Shown: one piece after another, positions 38,185-58,706 of the stretch
How the letters are laid out: every line of letters begins with the position of its first letter
Numbering within the stretch: position 1 is the first letter of the stretch
Assembly (NCBI GenBank): GCA_026397045.1
Contig: JAPLVO010000010.1
Location: 15,858-79,857 of the forward strand
DNA: 64,000 nucleotides
From: Patescibacteria group bacterium
GTDB lineage: Bacteria > Patescibacteriota > Saccharimonadia > CAILAD01 > BJGX01
Direction of reading: 5' to 3'
Program-made: the position numbers and the translations under genes
The notes under the pieces: generated by a model
Seen by the model: the letters and a program-made list of their open reading frames with translations, nothing else
Told to the model about the DNA's origin: nothing
Database searches by the model: none

Positions 38185-39468
38185 ATGAAGCATATAATAA
38201 TATCATTGATAGTAGTTATGACGGTAGTTGTAATGATGCCATCTAGAGCTCTATCAGCCTCTAAGCCAGTACTGATTAGTGAGGTTCAGACTGGCTCTTT
38301 GATATCCGCAGGGGAAGAGTTCATCGAGATTTTCAATAGTAGCACCTCAGCCATAGATGTAACTGGCTGGAGCCTTTATTACCGATCGGCTACCGGCGTT
38401 GTATGGTCCAAGAAAGGTACTATAGCGTCTGGCAGTGTAGATCCTGGAGATTTTTGGGTCTTGGCGGCCAACACTGTGGGTAATAGCCCGTTTACTAGCG
38501 GCCTAGCACAAAGTGGGGGTAGTATTGAGCTTAGGGACAAACAAGGCGCAGCAGTGGATCAGTTTGGCTGGGGTACGGCAAATACTGCACTTATAACTCC
38601 CGGAAGTGAATCGAAGCCTGGCGAGAGCATGTATCGTTTGTATGATTTTGGCTTAAAGGAAATGGTAAATAGTGATAATAATTTCGCTGATTTTGATATA
38701 TCTAATTCCCCAACACCTGGCATGGCTCCAGCTCAGGAAATAATAGAAGTAGAGGAGCCAGTACAAACATACCCTAACTTAGAGCTAAGCGAACTATTCC
38801 CTGATCCAGTCTCACCTTTAAGTGATGCGAGCGATGAGTTTATCGAGATATACAACCCCACAGCAGAGGCCGTAGATCTTTCGGGCTGGAAACTAAGAGA
38901 TGAATCGGGGGGAGAATACTTAATAAAAGGCAAGACAATCCTGGCATATGGCAGGATAGCAATAATGTCGAGCGAATCAAAGATTACACTTAACAATACA
39001 GGGGACATAATACTTCTGATCGACCCTAACGATAAAGTGGCTGATGAATCTAGCAATTATGGAGCAGCTGAAGAAGGCTTAGGCTGGACAAAGCAAGCTG
39101 GACAATGGCAGTGGAGCATCAGCCCGACTCCTGGTGCAGCTAATTCCGCCATATATATAGATAGCTCTCTTAGCCCCGCCTCATCTGTTGCAAACATTAA
39201 GAAGTCATCAACCAAAAAACCGTCTTCAAAAACTATAACCAAAGCCAAGGCCAAAGCCAAAGCTAAGACCAAGATAAGCAAATTGAAGGCATCACCAAAT
39301 AGTAGCTCCAATCCAGCGTCGTACCCTACCGATGCTAATAAAACGCCAGCTTCAGGTTTGTGGCCCTGGTTGCTTGTATCGCTAGGAATCGCTACCATAG
39401 GTTATGGAATATATGAATACAGAACAGAAATTCAGCTTCAATTCAAAAAACTTAGATCAAAGTTTTAA
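38185..39468 (+). CDS. Secreted protein with two lamin-tail domains, a (KA)n repeat and a C-terminal TM anchor
   Basis: Signal peptide. LISEVQTGS...EEFIEIFNSSTSAIDVTGWSL and ELSELFPDP...DEFIEIYNPTAEAVDLSGWKL match the lamin-tail-domain pattern. KAKAKAKAKTK. C-terminal hydrophobic segment. Confidence 0.5.
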   Translation: MKHIIISLIVVMTVVVMMPSRALSASKPVLISEVQTGSLISAGEEFIEIFNSSTSAIDVTGWSLYYRSATGVVWSKKGTIASGSVDPGDFWVLAANTVGNSPFTSGLAQSGGSIELRDKQGAAVDQFGWGTANTALITPGSESKPGESMYRLYDFGLKEMVNSDNNFADFDISNSPTPGMAPAQEIIEVEEPVQTYPNLELSELFPDPVSPLSDASDEFIEIYNPTAEAVDLSGWKLRDESGGEYLIKGKTILAYGRIAIMSSESKITLNNTGDIILLIDPNDKVADESSNYGAAEEGLGWTKQAGQWQWSISPTPGAANSAIYIDSSLSPASSVANIKKSSTKKPSSKTITKAKAKAKAKTKISKLKASPNSSSNPASYPTDANKTPASGLWPWLLVSLGIATIGYGIYEYRTEIQLQFKKLRSKF

Positions 39469-45512: not shown

Positions 45513-45587
45513 GGCGAGTGATGGGGCTTGAACCCACGACCTCCTGGACCACAACCAGGCGCTCTAACCAACTGAGCTACACCCGCC
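45513..45587 (-). tRNA. tRNA-His (anticodon GTG) with an encoded G at position -1. CCA is encoded at 45510-45512.
   Basis: Reverse complement: g-gcgggtgtagctcagttggttagagcgcctggttGTGgtccaggaggtcgtgggttcaagccccatcactcgc-c-cca. G-1 pairs with C73, a His identity element. Confidence 0.8.
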
Positions 45588-45623
45588 ACGGCGTCAGACA
45601 ACTACTTTGAAAATACTTTATGG

Positions 45624-45697
<74 letters not shown>

Positions 45698-45759
45698 TTA
45701 CATAGTTATTATACCCCAGATATAAATTAATCCCGGCAAGCGGGATAAATTTTTCATGG

Positions 45760-45831
45760 AGCGGGTAGCGGGGATCAAACCCGCATCTCCTGCTTGGAAG
45801 GCAGGAATAATAATCATTATACGATACCCGC
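45760..45831 (-). tRNA. tRNA-Gly (anticodon TCC). CCA is encoded at 45757-45759.
   Basis: Reverse complement: gcgggtatcgtataatgattattattcctgcctTCCaagcaggagatgcgggtttgatccccgctacccgc-t-cca. It has a U73 discriminator and a short D arm that closely resemble E. coli tRNA-Gly(UCC). Confidence 0.8.
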
Positions 45832-46566: not shown

Positions 46567-46640
46567 GCGCCCTTAGCTCAGCTGGATAGAGCGTCTGACT
46601 TCGGATCAGAAGGCCGGGGGTTCGAATCCCTCAGGGCGCA
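46567..46640 (+). tRNA. tRNA-Arg (anticodon TCG). CCA is encoded at 46641-46643.
   Basis: gcgcccttagctcagctggatagagcgtctgactTCGgatcagaaggccgggggttcgaatccctcagggcgc-a-cca. Stem tctga/tcaga, loop ctTCGga. Confidence 0.7.
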
Positions 46641-46673
46641 CCATAAAGTATTTTCAAAGTAGTTGTCTGACGA

Positions 46674-46747
46674 GGGCCAGTAGCTCAGTTGGTTAGAGCG
46701 GCTGCCTCTTAAGCAGCATGTCGCGGGTTCGAATCCCGCCTGGCCCT
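46674..46747 (+). tRNA. tRNA-Lys (anticodon CTT). CCA is encoded at 46748-46750.
   Basis: gggccagtagctcagttggttagagcggctgcctCTTaagcagcatgtcgcgggttcgaatcccgcctggccc-t-cca. Confidence 0.8.
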
Positions 46748-46849
46748 CCATAGTGTTTGCCTTCCTTTGCGATGGAACAAACCAGATTCTATATTCTGCT
46801 TGTTGCATCGAGGGGAAGACAAGTTAAGCTTACGAAAGCGATTTGGCAA

Positions 46850-46923
46850 CGGGGTGTGGCGCAGTTGGCTAGCGCGCGTCGTTTGGGACGATGAGGTCGA
46901 AGGTTCGAGTCCTTTCACCCCGA
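46850..46923 (+). tRNA. tRNA-Pro (anticodon TGG). CCA is encoded at 46924-46926.
   Basis: cggggtgtggcgcagttggctagcgcgcgtcgttTGGgacgatgaggtcgaaggttcgagtcctttcaccccg-a-cca. G37 fits Pro. Confidence 0.75.
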
Positions 46924-52934: not shown

Positions 52935-54119
52935 ATGGCCAAACTGCTTACACTAAAAGATATTGATTATGCGGGTAAAAAAGTATTTTTGCGAGTCGAT
53001 TATAATGTGGTGGTTAACGGCAAAGTGATCGATGAGTTTAGGGTCGCTCAAAGCCTCGCAACCATCAGTAAGCTGCTTTCTAGCGGCTGCTCTGTTATTT
53101 TGGCCAGCCATAATGGCCGACCAGAAGGAGAGCCAGATCCAAAACTAAGCCTCAGGCCAGTAGCCCAGGTTTTGGCTCAATTAATTAAGAGGCCAGTTGG
53201 TTTCGTCCCAGACTGTGTAGGCCCTGATACGGCTAAGGAGTCTAGGGCACTTAAGCCTGGGGAGCTGCTTTTATTGGAAAACTTACGGTTTCATGCAGCC
53301 GAGGAAAAAAACACTGTAGCCTTCGCCAAATCTCTGGCTAGCTTGGCCGAGGTCTATGTGGATGATGCCTTCGCCAACGCCCATAGACCGCACGCCAGCA
53401 TGATCGGTGTGCCACAGTACTTACCCCACGCCGCTGGGCTGCTAATGGAAAAGGAATATCTAAGAATAATATCTCTTACTAAATCTCCGAAGCGACCTTA
53501 TGTGGCAATAGTAGGGGGTGCTAAGATATCCACCAAGATAGAGGTATTACAGAGTTTGACAAAAAAGGTTGATACGCTTGTTATCGGAGGTGCAATGGCC
53601 AATACCTTCTTGCAGGCTCAGGGCTATAATGTGCAGTCCAGCATGACGGAGCCTGACCATGTAGGCACAGCCGCGGCTATAATAAAATTAGCCCATAAAA
53701 ATAATGTCAGCCTAATACTGCCTACCGATGTTGTCGTAGCAGAAAGAGTTGAGCATGGAGCCAGCCATCGGCAGATTGGAGTGGGTAAGATATCCGCCAA
53801 TGAGCTTGTCCTGGACATCGGTAAGAATACTATGAAGGGTATTTTACCTATCATATCTTCTGCCAAGACAGTTTTCTGGAACGGCACACTTGGCGTAGCT
53901 GAAATACCAGAGTTCGCCTGGGCTAGCAGGGACTTGGCTCACATGATCGCACTCAGAAAAAACAAAGCAGATACGATTGTCGGTGGGGGGGATACAGAAG
54001 CTTTTGTAGCTAAATTAGGTATGACCAATAGATTCGGTTTCGTTAGCACTGGTGGAGGTGTGTGTTTAGAGCTCTTAGCCGGGGATAAGCTCCCTGCAAT
54101 TGAAGTATTAATGAGCTAA
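52935..54119 (+). CDS. pgk: Phosphoglycerate kinase
   Basis: KKVFLRVDYNV, HNGRPEG, VGGGDT and a GGGV-containing C-terminus. Confidence 0.9.
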   Translation: MAKLLTLKDIDYAGKKVFLRVDYNVVVNGKVIDEFRVAQSLATISKLLSSGCSVILASHNGRPEGEPDPKLSLRPVAQVLAQLIKRPVGFVPDCVGPDTAKESRALKPGELLLLENLRFHAAEEKNTVAFAKSLASLAEVYVDDAFANAHRPHASMIGVPQYLPHAAGLLMEKEYLRIISLTKSPKRPYVAIVGGAKISTKIEVLQSLTKKVDTLVIGGAMANTFLQAQGYNVQSSMTEPDHVGTAAAIIKLAHKNNVSLILPTDVVVAERVEHGASHRQIGVGKISANELVLDIGKNTMKGILPIISSAKTVFWNGTLGVAEIPEFAWASRDLAHMIALRKNKADTIVGGGDTEAFVAKLGMTNRFGFVSTGGGVCLELLAGDKLPAIEVLMS

Positions 54120-54147: not shown

Positions 54148-55980
54148 CTAAAGCGCGCTAGCAGGCCCATTATTATTTGCACTTGCTGTATTGTCTTCGA
54201 ATTCATCTCTGGATCTATTCAGTGGATTTAGTTCATTTACAGCTTCCGGAAATCCCGATACCAATGTGCTTGAAGGAGTGGCCGGTATTGTAATCGGCTG
54301 GCTCGCAGGGGCTGTATTGGGCAATACCACTGGATGCTCGGCCGATTGGGTGCTAGATGTTATCGCAGGAGCTATGACAGGAGACGGCATTGCGGGTGGT
54401 ATTGAAGTAGGTATGATGTCGCTATCATTACTTTGCCCGATAACGGGTGCTTTTGTCTCTGATGGCTGAGGAGGAATTAGCGGGGGCTTGGGGGCCTTGG
54501 CAATGGGCGTAGGAGGCTCTAAATTAGAGATTGGCGGTGTTACTCTTGGGGGCTGAGGGGGAAAATTATTTGTATTAGCAAATTTATTATCTCTTGTCGC
54601 AGAGGGGGTTACCGGCCTGGGTGGAGTCATGGCTTTTGGTGGTGCCTGGATGTCGCCATCGATACTTTTTAGGGGCTTTGGCCTAGGCCCATCAATGGTG
54701 TTAAGAACAGCACTTTGGGTCGGCATATTTGCTGATTCTTTCGAAGGCTGAGTGGAATCTAGTGAATATTGGATTTCTAGCAAGCGATTATATTTTGCTA
54801 TTCGTTCACCTCTGACAGGAGCCCCAACTTTTATTCCATAGGCGCCTACTCCATAGGCTAAATCCACAATAAAATCATCATTACTTTCACCACTTCTGTG
54901 GCTAATTATGACCTCATTGCCTACCTCTCGAGCCATATCGATAGCAGCAAACATTTCCGATATGCTTCCAACTTGGTCGGGCTTGATAATTATCCCGTCA
55001 AAGACCTTTTCTTTTGCGAAATCATTAATCTTGCGTGAGTCTGTAACTGTAAAATCGTCTGATATTATCTGGAAGGGCTTACTTTCTGAGGGGATGCTCT
55101 TGAGTAGCTCGAGACCTTCAAGATCGGTTTCAGCAAATGGGTCTTCTAGCGAGAAAAGATCAAACTTTTGATCCCATGCCTGGTAGGCTGCAAGTAAATC
55201 GCTAGCGTGTGCGTTGTTTCCCTCAAAAACATAATTTTTACCGTTGTAAAAGCTGTTGGCAGCAATATCTAGGGCTATTTCAAATTTCGAATCCATTTTT
55301 TCTCTGAGGTTGGCAATTGCTTCTAGGACTACTTCTGTTCTAACACCAACTGGCGCGATGGCACCCTCGTCGCCTACTAGCTGGGCCGCTGGGCCATACA
55401 AACTAACCATTATTGTCTTGATGGTTTGATAAACCTGAACTATCATTTCTATAGATTCTATTGGGTTGGTTGATTTAGGGACAATCATAAACTCCTGAAT
55501 ATCCAGTCCGGGGGCGTGTTTACCACCACTAACTAAATTAGCGTATATTCTAGGAAACTTAGGAGTGGTTTTTCGATTTTCAGCAATGTATTGCCAGAGG
55601 GGTTTTTTACTGAGCTTGGCACTTAGCTTAAAGTAGGCACCTGAGAGCGCCAAAATTGTATTTGCGCCCAAGTTCTGCTTATTATCTGTCCCGTCTAGAG
55701 CGATTACTAGGCTATCGAAGTCATCTTGATGTTTTAGCGGATACCCAATAAACTTGGGTGAAACAATTTTATTGATTAAATCCACGCACGAGGCTACACT
55801 CTTTCCGCCGTAGCTATCGCCGTTATCAGTCTTTTTTTCTGCTTCACCTATACCCAAGCTAGAGCCTGCGGGCACAATAAACCATGATGAAGTACCATTT
55901 TCAGCTACCATCCTGACTTTTAGCGTCGGCTCACCGTTAGAATTTAGTACCTGCGAGGGTACAATGCTTTTAATTCCCAT
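54148..55980 (-). CDS. eno: Enolase carrying a C-terminal Pro/Ser/Thr-rich extension of about 185 aa
   Basis: The enolase core is roughly residues 1-425: SHRSGESNDDFIVDLAYGVGAYGIKVGAPVRGERIAKYNRLLEIQ, and IKPDQVGSISEMFAAIDMA. The low-complexity tail (PPKAMTPPRPVTPS...PPQPPRVTPP...) is encoded by 54148-54705. Confidence 0.85.
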   Translation of the reverse strand: MGIKSIVPSQVLNSNGEPTLKVRMVAENGTSSWFIVPAGSSLGIGEAEKKTDNGDSYGGKSVASCVDLINKIVSPKFIGYPLKHQDDFDSLVIALDGTDNKQNLGANTILALSGAYFKLSAKLSKKPLWQYIAENRKTTPKFPRIYANLVSGGKHAPGLDIQEFMIVPKSTNPIESIEMIVQVYQTIKTIMVSLYGPAAQLVGDEGAIAPVGVRTEVVLEAIANLREKMDSKFEIALDIAANSFYNGKNYVFEGNNAHASDLLAAYQAWDQKFDLFSLEDPFAETDLEGLELLKSIPSESKPFQIISDDFTVTDSRKINDFAKEKVFDGIIIKPDQVGSISEMFAAIDMAREVGNEVIISHRSGESNDDFIVDLAYGVGAYGIKVGAPVRGERIAKYNRLLEIQYSLDSTQPSKESANMPTQSAVLNTIDGPRPKPLKSIDGDIQAPPKAMTPPRPVTPSATRDNKFANTNNFPPQPPRVTPPISNLEPPTPIAKAPKPPLIPPQPSETKAPVIGQSNDSDIIPTSIPPAMPSPVIAPAITSSTQSAEHPVVLPNTAPASQPITIPATPSSTLVSGFPEAVNELNPLNRSRDEFEDNTASANNNGPASAL

Positions 55981-57293: not shown

Positions 57294-57902
57294 ATGAGTG
57301 AGTTAGGTAGATATAATCCAAATAATTCAGAAAAAAATCGAAACCAATTTTCTAGAAGAAAACTTGGAGCAGCTTTTATCGCTGCAGCACTTGGCGCGGG
57401 TGCCATTATGGGGACAGATAAGAGTGATGTAAAAAAAGATAAATCGGGCGAGCTGGCTTTAGATGAAAAAATAGATAAAATGTTTGAAGAAGCAGGAATC
57501 CAAAAGGGTTCAATAATCAATGTCATAGCAGCCGAATTAGTAATAAATACTGAAAAAGTAAATGTCAGGGAAGGCTATGATGTTTCCGACTTTAACAAGA
57601 TTACTTCTAGCGAGCTCATAGGGGTAAGTGGTGCAATCATGATACCCCTCACTGACGACGACCCTAATGGCTCAAGATATATGGCTATATTGAAAGGCCC
57701 CAATGGAGAAAGAACATTGATTAGTTTTGTAGTTGAGGTGGATGGTGTATCTTATGCTGCAACTGGCAAGCCGTATGATGGAGTAACAACGAAAATGATA
57801 TATGAAGGATCTAAGGATGGTCAGCCAATGGCCATCGAAGAAGGCGGAGCAGAAATACTCGTAGCAACAGCCCAAGAATTAGGTAAGAATAAGTCTAAGT
57901 AG
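57294..57902 (+). CDS. Hypothetical exported protein (possible twin-arginine-like signal)
   Basis: N-terminal SRRKLGAAFIAAALGAGAIMG resembles a Tat signal. Otherwise no motif. Confidence 0.3.
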   Translation: MSELGRYNPNNSEKNRNQFSRRKLGAAFIAAALGAGAIMGTDKSDVKKDKSGELALDEKIDKMFEEAGIQKGSIINVIAAELVINTEKVNVREGYDVSDFNKITSSELIGVSGAIMIPLTDDDPNGSRYMAILKGPNGERTLISFVVEVDGVSYAATGKPYDGVTTKMIYEGSKDGQPMAIEEGGAEILVATAQELGKNKSK

Positions 57903-58304: not shown

Positions 58305-58706
58305 ATGACACAAACTACACTAGATAACATCAAGCCCACACAGCCACTTTCTCAATCTGGCCAGCAAGACTCTACAATCGATCTTAGGACGCCAGAGGGA
58401 GAAGCCCAAAAATTAAGGGATAAAGAATCTAGAACACGAGCTATACAGAATCAAGCAAATCGGTCTAATGTTTTGCCGAGGGTCGGCCTAGACGGCATGC
58501 GTCGCACCAGACCTAGCCCTGGGGCTACAGCCACTTCTACTGGCCCACCATCCGAAGGTTCGGCTTTCATACTACCCAAAGAGCAGCTAGAACAGCCGCC
58601 GGTTGTGGTATCTAACCCTAGCACCAGTACCGAGGCCCAGCCTATCGACCAACAGCAAGAGCAAAAGAAGCCAGGCTTTTTTGCCAGAATGTTTGGGAAA
58701 AAGTAA
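58305..58706 (+). CDS. Hypothetical low-complexity protein
   Basis: 133-aa ORF rich in Q/S/T/P. This may not be a real gene. Confidence 0.2.
   Translation: MTQTTLDNIKPTQPLSQSGQQDSTIDLRTPEGEAQKLRDKESRTRAIQNQANRSNVLPRVGLDGMRRTRPSPGATATSTGPPSEGSAFILPKEQLEQPPVVVSNPSTSTEAQPIDQQQEQKKPGFFARMFGKK

Follow-up and report, generated by a model that had tools for sequence, protein, structure and literature searches.

The enolases of known structure, exemplified by those of M. jannaschii (2pa6), B. subtilis (4a3r) and E. coli (1e9i), are proteins of 417-477 aa that end about 10-25 residues past their last helix. A 64-kb stretch of DNA from an ultra-small, Saccharibacteria-like Patescibacteria group bacterium (contig JAPLVO010000010.1, positions 15,858 to 79,857; hereafter the window, the whole stretch that was analysed and to which the positions below refer) encodes an enolase, eno, that agrees with these canonical enzymes in its predicted two-domain fold, its residues for catalysis and metal binding and its setting among glycolytic genes, but adds about 200 residues, predicted to be disordered, at its C-terminus. 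It is a very well known enzyme with a new extension, not a new kind of system, and no published description of this tail was found in literature searches. We give roughly even chances to the reading that the tail is a flexible docking arm, recruiting enolase to one or more putative partners that would most likely be intracellular.

The closest architectural precedents lie outside the enolase family. FtsZ carries a C-terminal linker followed by a conserved C-terminal peptide, and the single-stranded DNA-binding protein (SSB) a disordered linker with an acidic tip; in both cases the tips dock partners. The tailed enolase resembles FtsZ and SSB in having a folded oligomeric core, a variable disordered linker and a short conserved peptide at the extreme C-terminus. 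The disordered variable linker and the conserved C-terminal peptide are both found in the family described here, and the tip of the window protein, PASAL, fits loosely. There is no sequence relationship to FtsZ or SSB, the enolase core is a metabolic enzyme and its linker carries extra internal motifs; the resemblance is one of architecture.

Two further systems involve glycolytic enzymes directly. The non-catalytic C-terminal region of RNase E contains microdomains, and through this region enolase joins the RNA degradosome of E. coli (PMC4435900, PMC5758883). As in the tailed enolase, a long and fast-evolving disordered region keeps short recognition islands, and enolase is part of the tethered assembly. 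However, in E. coli it is the RNase that carries the disordered scaffold, with enolase as its folded client, whereas here the disordered arm is on enolase itself, and any link of the tailed enolase to RNA decay in this organism is speculation. The sperm-specific enzyme GAPDHS (GAPD-2) is anchored to the fibrous sheath of the flagellum through an N-terminal extension rich in proline (PMC3224139). There, too, a glycolytic enzyme has gained a Pro-rich non-catalytic extension, the use for localisation being that of GAPDHS, but this protein is eukaryotic, its extension of about 70-100 aa is N-terminal and the sequences are unrelated, so that the comparison is an analogy only.

The open reading frame (ORF) at 54148..55980 of the minus strand encodes a protein of 610 aa, made up of a complete enolase and an in-frame tail:

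54751..55980, minus strand: enolase catalytic core, residues 1-410 (N-terminal domain and TIM barrel), complete; supported by Pfam, TIGR01060, a PDB match and AlphaFold2
54148..54750, minus strand: Pro/Ser/Thr/Ala-rich C-terminal tail, residues 411-610, predicted to be disordered, and the stop codon (54148-54150); same frame, AlphaFold2

The core matches Enolase_N (PF03952) over residues 3-132 with 110.7 bits (cutoff 35), Enolase_C (PF00113) over residues 145-410 with 199.3 bits (cutoff 21.5) and the NCBIfam equivalog TIGR01060 (eno) over residues 3-410 with 321.6 bits (cutoff 300). Coverage by the Pfam and TIGR01060 models up to residue 410 bears out the original prediction, made from the letters of the window, that the 610-aa eno frame contains a complete catalytic core; its yardstick of about 430 aa for an ordinary enolase does not suit this lineage, in which tail-less relatives are 402-403 aa long. 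The best PDB match is M. jannaschii 2pa6 (phmmer, E = 2.5e-78, residues 3-408), with which the enolase motifs SHRSGE, KPDQVG and EDPF line up, and all alignments to solved enolases in the PDB search are confined to query residues 1-412. Residues E163, D238, E279, D308, K333, R362 and K384 are invariant in alignment A1, where E205 is nearly so, and H361 is nearly invariant in alignment A3. By established numbering, the catalytic and metal-binding residues have as their yeast counterparts E168, E211, D246, E295, D320, K345, H373 and K396. Residues 1-415 are modelled by AlphaFold2 with a predicted local distance difference test score (pLDDT) above 90, in an alpha/beta pattern that agrees with the Pfam N-terminal and TIM-barrel domains. 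Judged by its sequence, the core is that of a true enolase, scoring above all three curated cutoffs. The gene is a housekeeping one for a working enolase, as far as activity can be predicted, because the catalytic columns are kept and its neighbours include pgk, pyk, tpiA and a gene for a 2-hydroxyacid dehydrogenase.

Beyond the core, the frame runs for 200 residues without a stop to the TAG at 54148-54150. The span originally flagged, 54148-54705, corresponds to residues 426-610 and the stop codon, while the non-enolase part begins near residue 411 (nucleotide 54750); the three Pro-rich strings quoted in the original prediction are all present in the translation, and the length of about 185 residues given there becomes about 200. 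The tail consists of 21% Pro, 10.5% Ser, 10.5% Ala, 8.5% Thr and 8% Asn, has a fraction of charged residues of 0.15 and lacks Cys and Trp. Its 600 nucleotides stayed free of in-frame stops in only 2 of 20,000 shuffles, and the other two frames of the same strand hold 11 and 18 stops; an open frame of this length is improbable by chance. GC content at third codon positions is 0.39 in tail and core alike. With 40% Pro over 40 residues, the tail includes the most Pro-rich stretch among the ORFs of at least 100 aa in the window. Strong positive GC skew is seen at 54200-54800 because of the CCN codons on the minus strand, and a 92-aa plus-strand ORF antisense to the tail (54191..54469) is probably a shadow of these same codons. 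In the tail DNA, Tandem Repeats Finder reported nothing beyond a trivial match of 9 bp x 2.1.

The same protein has been recovered many times. The identical 610-aa sequence was assembled independently in four sequencing runs (Logan) and is deposited at NCBI as MCX6804778.1, from a metagenome-assembled genome (MAG) labelled 'Patescibacteria group bacterium'. A variant that differs by 2 aa (P0001) is present on 24-26 contigs from JGI, ENA, NCBI and Logan, with the same neighbours each time, and these contigs together with the window represent 10 distinct DNA haplotypes. In all, the intact 610-aa form occurs on at least 28 independently assembled contigs. The tail truly belongs to the eno reading frame.

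Tails are widespread among the relatives of this enolase. The comparative set comprised the best 120 homologue clusters listed, and C-terminal extensions of 24-225 aa are found in 108 of these; the 12 most distant clusters stop at 402-403 aa, four or five residues past the last helix. On a neighbour-joining tree of the core, rooted on the tail-less group, the order runs from tail-less enolases to tails of 25-35 aa, then of 85-185 aa, and finally to a crown group with tails of 150-225 aa that includes the window protein. Among the matches listed from species-representative genomes, 75 more distant enolase loci extend past the last helix by a median of 7 and a maximum of 63 residues, and in the five closest GTDB representatives, except for one truncated by a contig end, the extension is 91-132 residues long. 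Because of the order on the core tree and the short extensions of distant enolases, the long tail is, on sequence comparison, a derived and clade-specific trait of genomes labelled Saccharibacteria or Patescibacteria, and not one general to enolases.

Conservation of the extension, which the original prediction had left to homology searches, is seen with the full protein, in-frame tails being present in more than 100 homologue clusters, and not with the tail alone. A phmmer search with residues 411-610 against 1.84 billion representatives gave 0 matches, and a profile of the C-terminal module, built on the last 75 residues of 17 relatives, found nothing at E <= 0.01 among 5.8 billion proteins; true relatives, too, were probably suppressed by the correction for composition bias. 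The window protein has no Pfam or NCBIfam match past residue 410.

Several tailed enolases are deposited at NCBI as 'hypothetical protein' (for example MCX6804778.1, HYX70_04805 and KBC99_00615), among them the window protein, which passes TIGR01060. A 2020 study placed enolase in oral Saccharibacteria groups only and reported it as absent from environmental genomes (PMC7427843). Under-annotation of divergent tailed enolases may have contributed to this reported absence.

A Pro-rich extension of about 60 residues (…PLPVPATPSRLPRPR…TPTPTPSSSPTANQ) is also present on a distant enolase (38% identity) from a MAG labelled Gammaproteobacteria (locus L019, contig CAYHNU010000003.1). It may be a sign that enolases acquired short Pro-rich tails on more than one occasion, or else that the bin is mislabelled.

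The tail is predicted to be intrinsically disordered. In the AlphaFold2 model of the window protein, obtained with a 72-sequence alignment, the last helix of the core spans residues 391-410 (H391-410), pLDDT is below 50 at residues 427-610 and the sole secondary structure in the tail is a 6-residue helix at 578-583. The tail of a relative with canonical motifs (P0002) is likewise modelled with pLDDT below 50, with low-confidence helices at 574-581 and 584-587. Of the extended spacer or adhesin arm proposed in the original prediction, it is the spacer that these models of two proteins support.

Disorder is accompanied by rapid change. Measured as amino-acid variability among members of 90%-identity clusters, variable sites make up 1.7% of the core and 8.0% of the tail in cluster 1 (10 sequences), and 2.4% of the core and 22% of the tail in cluster 2 (7 sequences), so that the tail evolves about 4-10 times faster than the core; no length changes occur within either cluster. 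Motifs c, f and g, described below, are invariant in these clusters, as are 58 consecutive residues (541-598) in cluster 1. On this sequence evidence, the pattern is that of a disordered region under relaxed constraint that holds constrained short motifs. A count of 12 synonymous against 1 non-synonymous tail changes over the 10 haplotypes was considered as a test of purifying selection and rejected as circular, because the contigs had been retrieved by exact protein identity.

Spacers cannot be aligned across the homologues, but short islands recur, including across subclades whose spacers have diverged beyond recognition. In the window protein these are:

54748..54771, minus strand: motif a, QYSLDSTQ, residues 404-411, where the last core helix ends and the tail starts; pattern [EQ]-[YA]-x-L-[DE]-x-x-Q
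54673..54714, minus strand: motif b, SAVLNTIDGPRPKP, residues 423-436, corresponding in degenerate form to KPIETPLDRPxNKP of the closest relatives
54574..54600, minus strand: motif c, ATRDNKFAN, residues 461-469, degenerate counterpart of the [RK]-D-[IL]-H-F-G / IHFDRPLYP island
54274..54351, minus strand: motif e region, TQSAEHPVVLPNTAPASQPITIPATP, residues 544-569, a Pro-rich block and possible counterpart of NPPENPIPIVPQ or THVVTVPPETPMP (alignment A2)
54205..54258, minus strand: motif f, SGFPEAVNELNPLNRSRD, residues 575-592, pattern S-F-x6-L-N-P-x2-R-A (A2, A3, AlphaFold2)
54151..54168, minus strand: motif g, the C-terminal tip GPASAL-COOH, residues 605-610; pattern P(-5)-x-hydrophobic-small-x

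Motifs were counted over the 108 tails, with the expectation taken from shuffles and with hits that are not phylogenetically independent. Motif f is the best conserved island of the tail: its P and R are invariant in A2 (17 sequences), its majority consensus in A3 is SF......L.P..RA, and its core pattern LNP..R is found in 31 of the 108 tails against 2.5 expected. The structural models predict that it is a nascent helix. Motif a occurs in 67 tails (0.7 expected), and motifs a and f are the two that are clear in the window protein. The DIHFG-like pattern of motif c is present in 28 tails (0.16 expected) and across distant subclades, with only R-D-x-x-F retained in the window protein (RDNKF). 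For motif g, Pro at position -5 is seen in 76 tails and the full pattern, P.[LIV][STAG].$, in 31 against 1.1 expected; relatives' tips read P-x-L-[SA]-x, and the tip is found even in P0070 and P0073, which are among the shortest tails. The two remaining islands are less certain. The correspondence of motif b in the window protein (IDGPRPKP) is a by-eye judgement and weak, although the motif is invariant save for one site within cluster 2, and the homology of the motif e block to the blocks of relatives is uncertain from the alignment, although the region is invariant among the 10 variants of cluster 1.

What is the role of the extension? The tail is organised as stickers and spacers, in which a fast-evolving Pro/Ser/Thr/Ala-rich spacer of variable length is broken by a few conserved short linear motifs. 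The spacer would act as a flexible tether, and through the motifs the enolase dimer would bind one or more partners, most likely intracellular ones; candidates include other glycolytic enzymes, a membrane complex and an assembly that degrades RNA. Such docking would localise enolase or build it into a larger complex, much as the linker and C-terminal peptide do for FtsZ or the linker and tip for SSB. The docking arm is favoured because a folded dimeric enzyme with a long variable disordered linker, conserved motifs and a conserved tip matches known bacterial tethers, and the conserved short motifs, which the original prediction had not noticed, point, we infer, to specific binding over a mere spacer. 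Patescibacteria genomes are very small, yet throughout a clade about 600 nt are given over to a disordered enolase appendage with preserved motifs, and a function beyond catalysis is therefore implied. If the motifs are docking sites, they would offer a handle on how ultra-small cells organise their metabolism or RNA turnover, or contact their hosts.

Several observations weigh against a docking arm. Motifs b, c and g are degenerate in the window protein (RDNKF for RDIHFG; PASAL for P-x-L-S-x), and some docking sites may be weak or lost in this species. The motif counts lack phylogenetic independence. Extracellular linkers, too, typically combine low charge with a high content of Pro, Thr and Ser. 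Neither of the single-chain AlphaFold2 models (window and P0002) shows the tail docked on its own core, the tail module was not detected on non-enolase proteins in the searches above, which thus give no sign of a shared docking system, and the neighbouring genes offer no clue to a putative partner.

A more far-reaching version, to which we assign a low probability, would make the tail a multivalent docking arm with which enolase organises a lineage-specific assembly instead of being its client. Such an assembly might be a degradosome of 'reversed polarity' or a glycolytic metabolon; in another version the arm would be exposed at the interface of epibiont and host and contact the host cell. Were either so, a streamlined episymbiont would have equipped one of its core metabolic enzymes with a newly invented interaction module.

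The alternative that survives best is that the tail is a non-specific appendage, an entropic bristle or spacer that alters solubility, oligomeric state (dimer versus octamer) or condensates, its islands being incidental or structural. The wide variation and fast drift of the tail in length (24-225 aa) and sequence, the disorder modelled throughout, the partly degenerate motifs of the window protein and the lack of any tail homologue or partner in the searches are all consistent with such a role. A bristle would not, however, readily account for several islands and an extreme C-terminal tip that are kept across subclades with unalignable spacers, nor for the 58 invariant residues (541-598) of cluster 1 in a tail whose spacer varies, and the keeping of 600 nt in a streamlined genome would argue for selection. 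We therefore regard a purely non-specific appendage as possible but doubtful.

Enolases reach bacterial surfaces by non-classical routes, and those of streptococci and other Gram-positive bacteria that bind plasminogen belong to the same enzyme family, so that a moonlighting role is conceivable here. A surface-displayed enolase, exported by a non-classical route, could use the Pro-rich tail to span the wall or as an adhesive arm towards a host bacterium or matrix. Enolase is, as generally known, a classic surface moonlighter, the low-charge, Pro/Thr/Ser/Ala-rich composition resembles that of wall-spanning or extracellular linkers, and the relatives are labelled Saccharibacteria or Patescibacteria, a group that the literature describes as having epibiotic lifestyles. 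The Gram-positive surface enolases, however, are of normal length and display C-terminal lysines and an internal loop, whereas the window protein has a long tail ending in GPASAL, without the C-terminal lysines with which streptococcal enolase binds plasminogen. There is no signal peptide or N-terminal extension, the enolase models matching from residue 3; no hydrophobic or membrane segment is present in the tail, in which the 19-residue Kyte-Doolittle mean reaches at most 1.16; and the C-terminus, ...NNNGPASAL, has no LPXTG-type sorting signal. The gene also lies in a glycolysis cluster and encodes the only enolase seen in the window, and the islands resemble docking motifs more than adhesive repeats, of which there are none. 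The adhesin arm of the original prediction accordingly finds no support in these sequence features, and we judge surface display unlikely.

It is very improbable that the tip is a degron or a signal for recognition by a protease or PDZ domain, with the tail serving regulated turnover or processing of enolase. The conserved residues do stand at the very C-terminus and are small or hydrophobic, and ClpXP, Tsp and PDZ proteases are generally known to recognise such C-termini. A degron, however, needs no linker of 200 residues with further internal motifs, the tip pattern is loose, no likeness to a known tag stands out, although no search aimed at one was made, and a housekeeping enzyme would be an odd target.

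That a lost stop or a frameshift joined enolase to a downstream ORF through an assembly or sequencing error, as the original prediction had allowed, has a negligible probability and is refuted by the repeated independent assembly of the intact form, by the in-frame tails of more than 100 diverged homologue clusters, by the finding of no separate downstream gene in relatives and by the lack of space for one, the stop of the convergent pgk gene lying 28 bp from that of eno. Separate tail-only proteins of 192 aa exist in some database entries of the same 90%-identity cluster and could be taken for split genes. They trace to three different frame-breaking lesions within the core, and in none is there a stop at the core end: one scaffold lacks 44 bp (nt 1076-1119), another lacks 2 bp at nt 1185, and the third has gained 1 bp at nt 445 and also contains a run of N. 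The 192-aa calls begin at Met419, where the gene caller restarts, and as evidence for a split gene they were rejected as restarts after unrelated core lesions. The lesion scaffolds (L085:1202-2990, L097:1749-3579 and L098:208-1982) all come from one ENA project (GROS21-1). Most likely the lesions are assembly or scaffolding errors in a strain mixture, although they may instead be defective alleles in the population.

Around eno the window contains the following genes:

52935..54119, plus strand: pgk, encoding a phosphoglycerate kinase of 394 aa and convergent with eno, with 28 bp between the two stops; ORF, with PF00162 on the same gene in loci L081-L095
56019..57035, minus strand: D-2-hydroxyacid dehydrogenase family gene, directly upstream of eno; PF02826 and PF00389, a neighbour kept in loci L081-L096
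58825-60360, plus strand: pyruvate kinase; PF00224 and PF02887
60357-61109, plus strand: triosephosphate isomerase; PF00121

The gene thus lies in a lower-glycolysis neighbourhood, and genes for pyruvate kinase and triosephosphate isomerase are also near eno in locus L096. No second enolase was seen in the 64 kb, and no comparable tail or C-terminal tip was found on other genes of the window, including those for phosphoglycerate kinase, pyruvate kinase and triosephosphate isomerase. Within the window, the appendage is specific to enolase.

Two ORFs without a Pfam match lie between the 2-hydroxyacid dehydrogenase and pyruvate kinase genes. The first, of 202 aa (57294-57902, plus strand), has an N-terminal hydrophobic segment (RRKLGAAFIAAALGAGAIMG), and its product may be secreted or membrane-anchored; it lies between the dehydrogenase gene and the second ORF, and a gene of 207-232 aa occupies that place in loci L086-L090. 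The second, of 133 aa (58305-58706, plus strand), looks disordered throughout (Q/P/S/T-rich) and is kept between the dehydrogenase and pyruvate kinase genes in the same loci, L086-L090. Its C-terminal end, KKPGFFARMFGKK, presumably resembles the amphipathic helices with which the C-termini of MinD and FtsA target the membrane.

Elsewhere in the window, a 427-aa protein (38185-39468, plus strand) contains two stretches of Lamin Tail Domain (PF00932) and is moderately Pro-rich around residue 171. The window also holds eleven tRNA genes, including clusters at 45513-45831 (minus strand) and 46567-46923 (plus strand).

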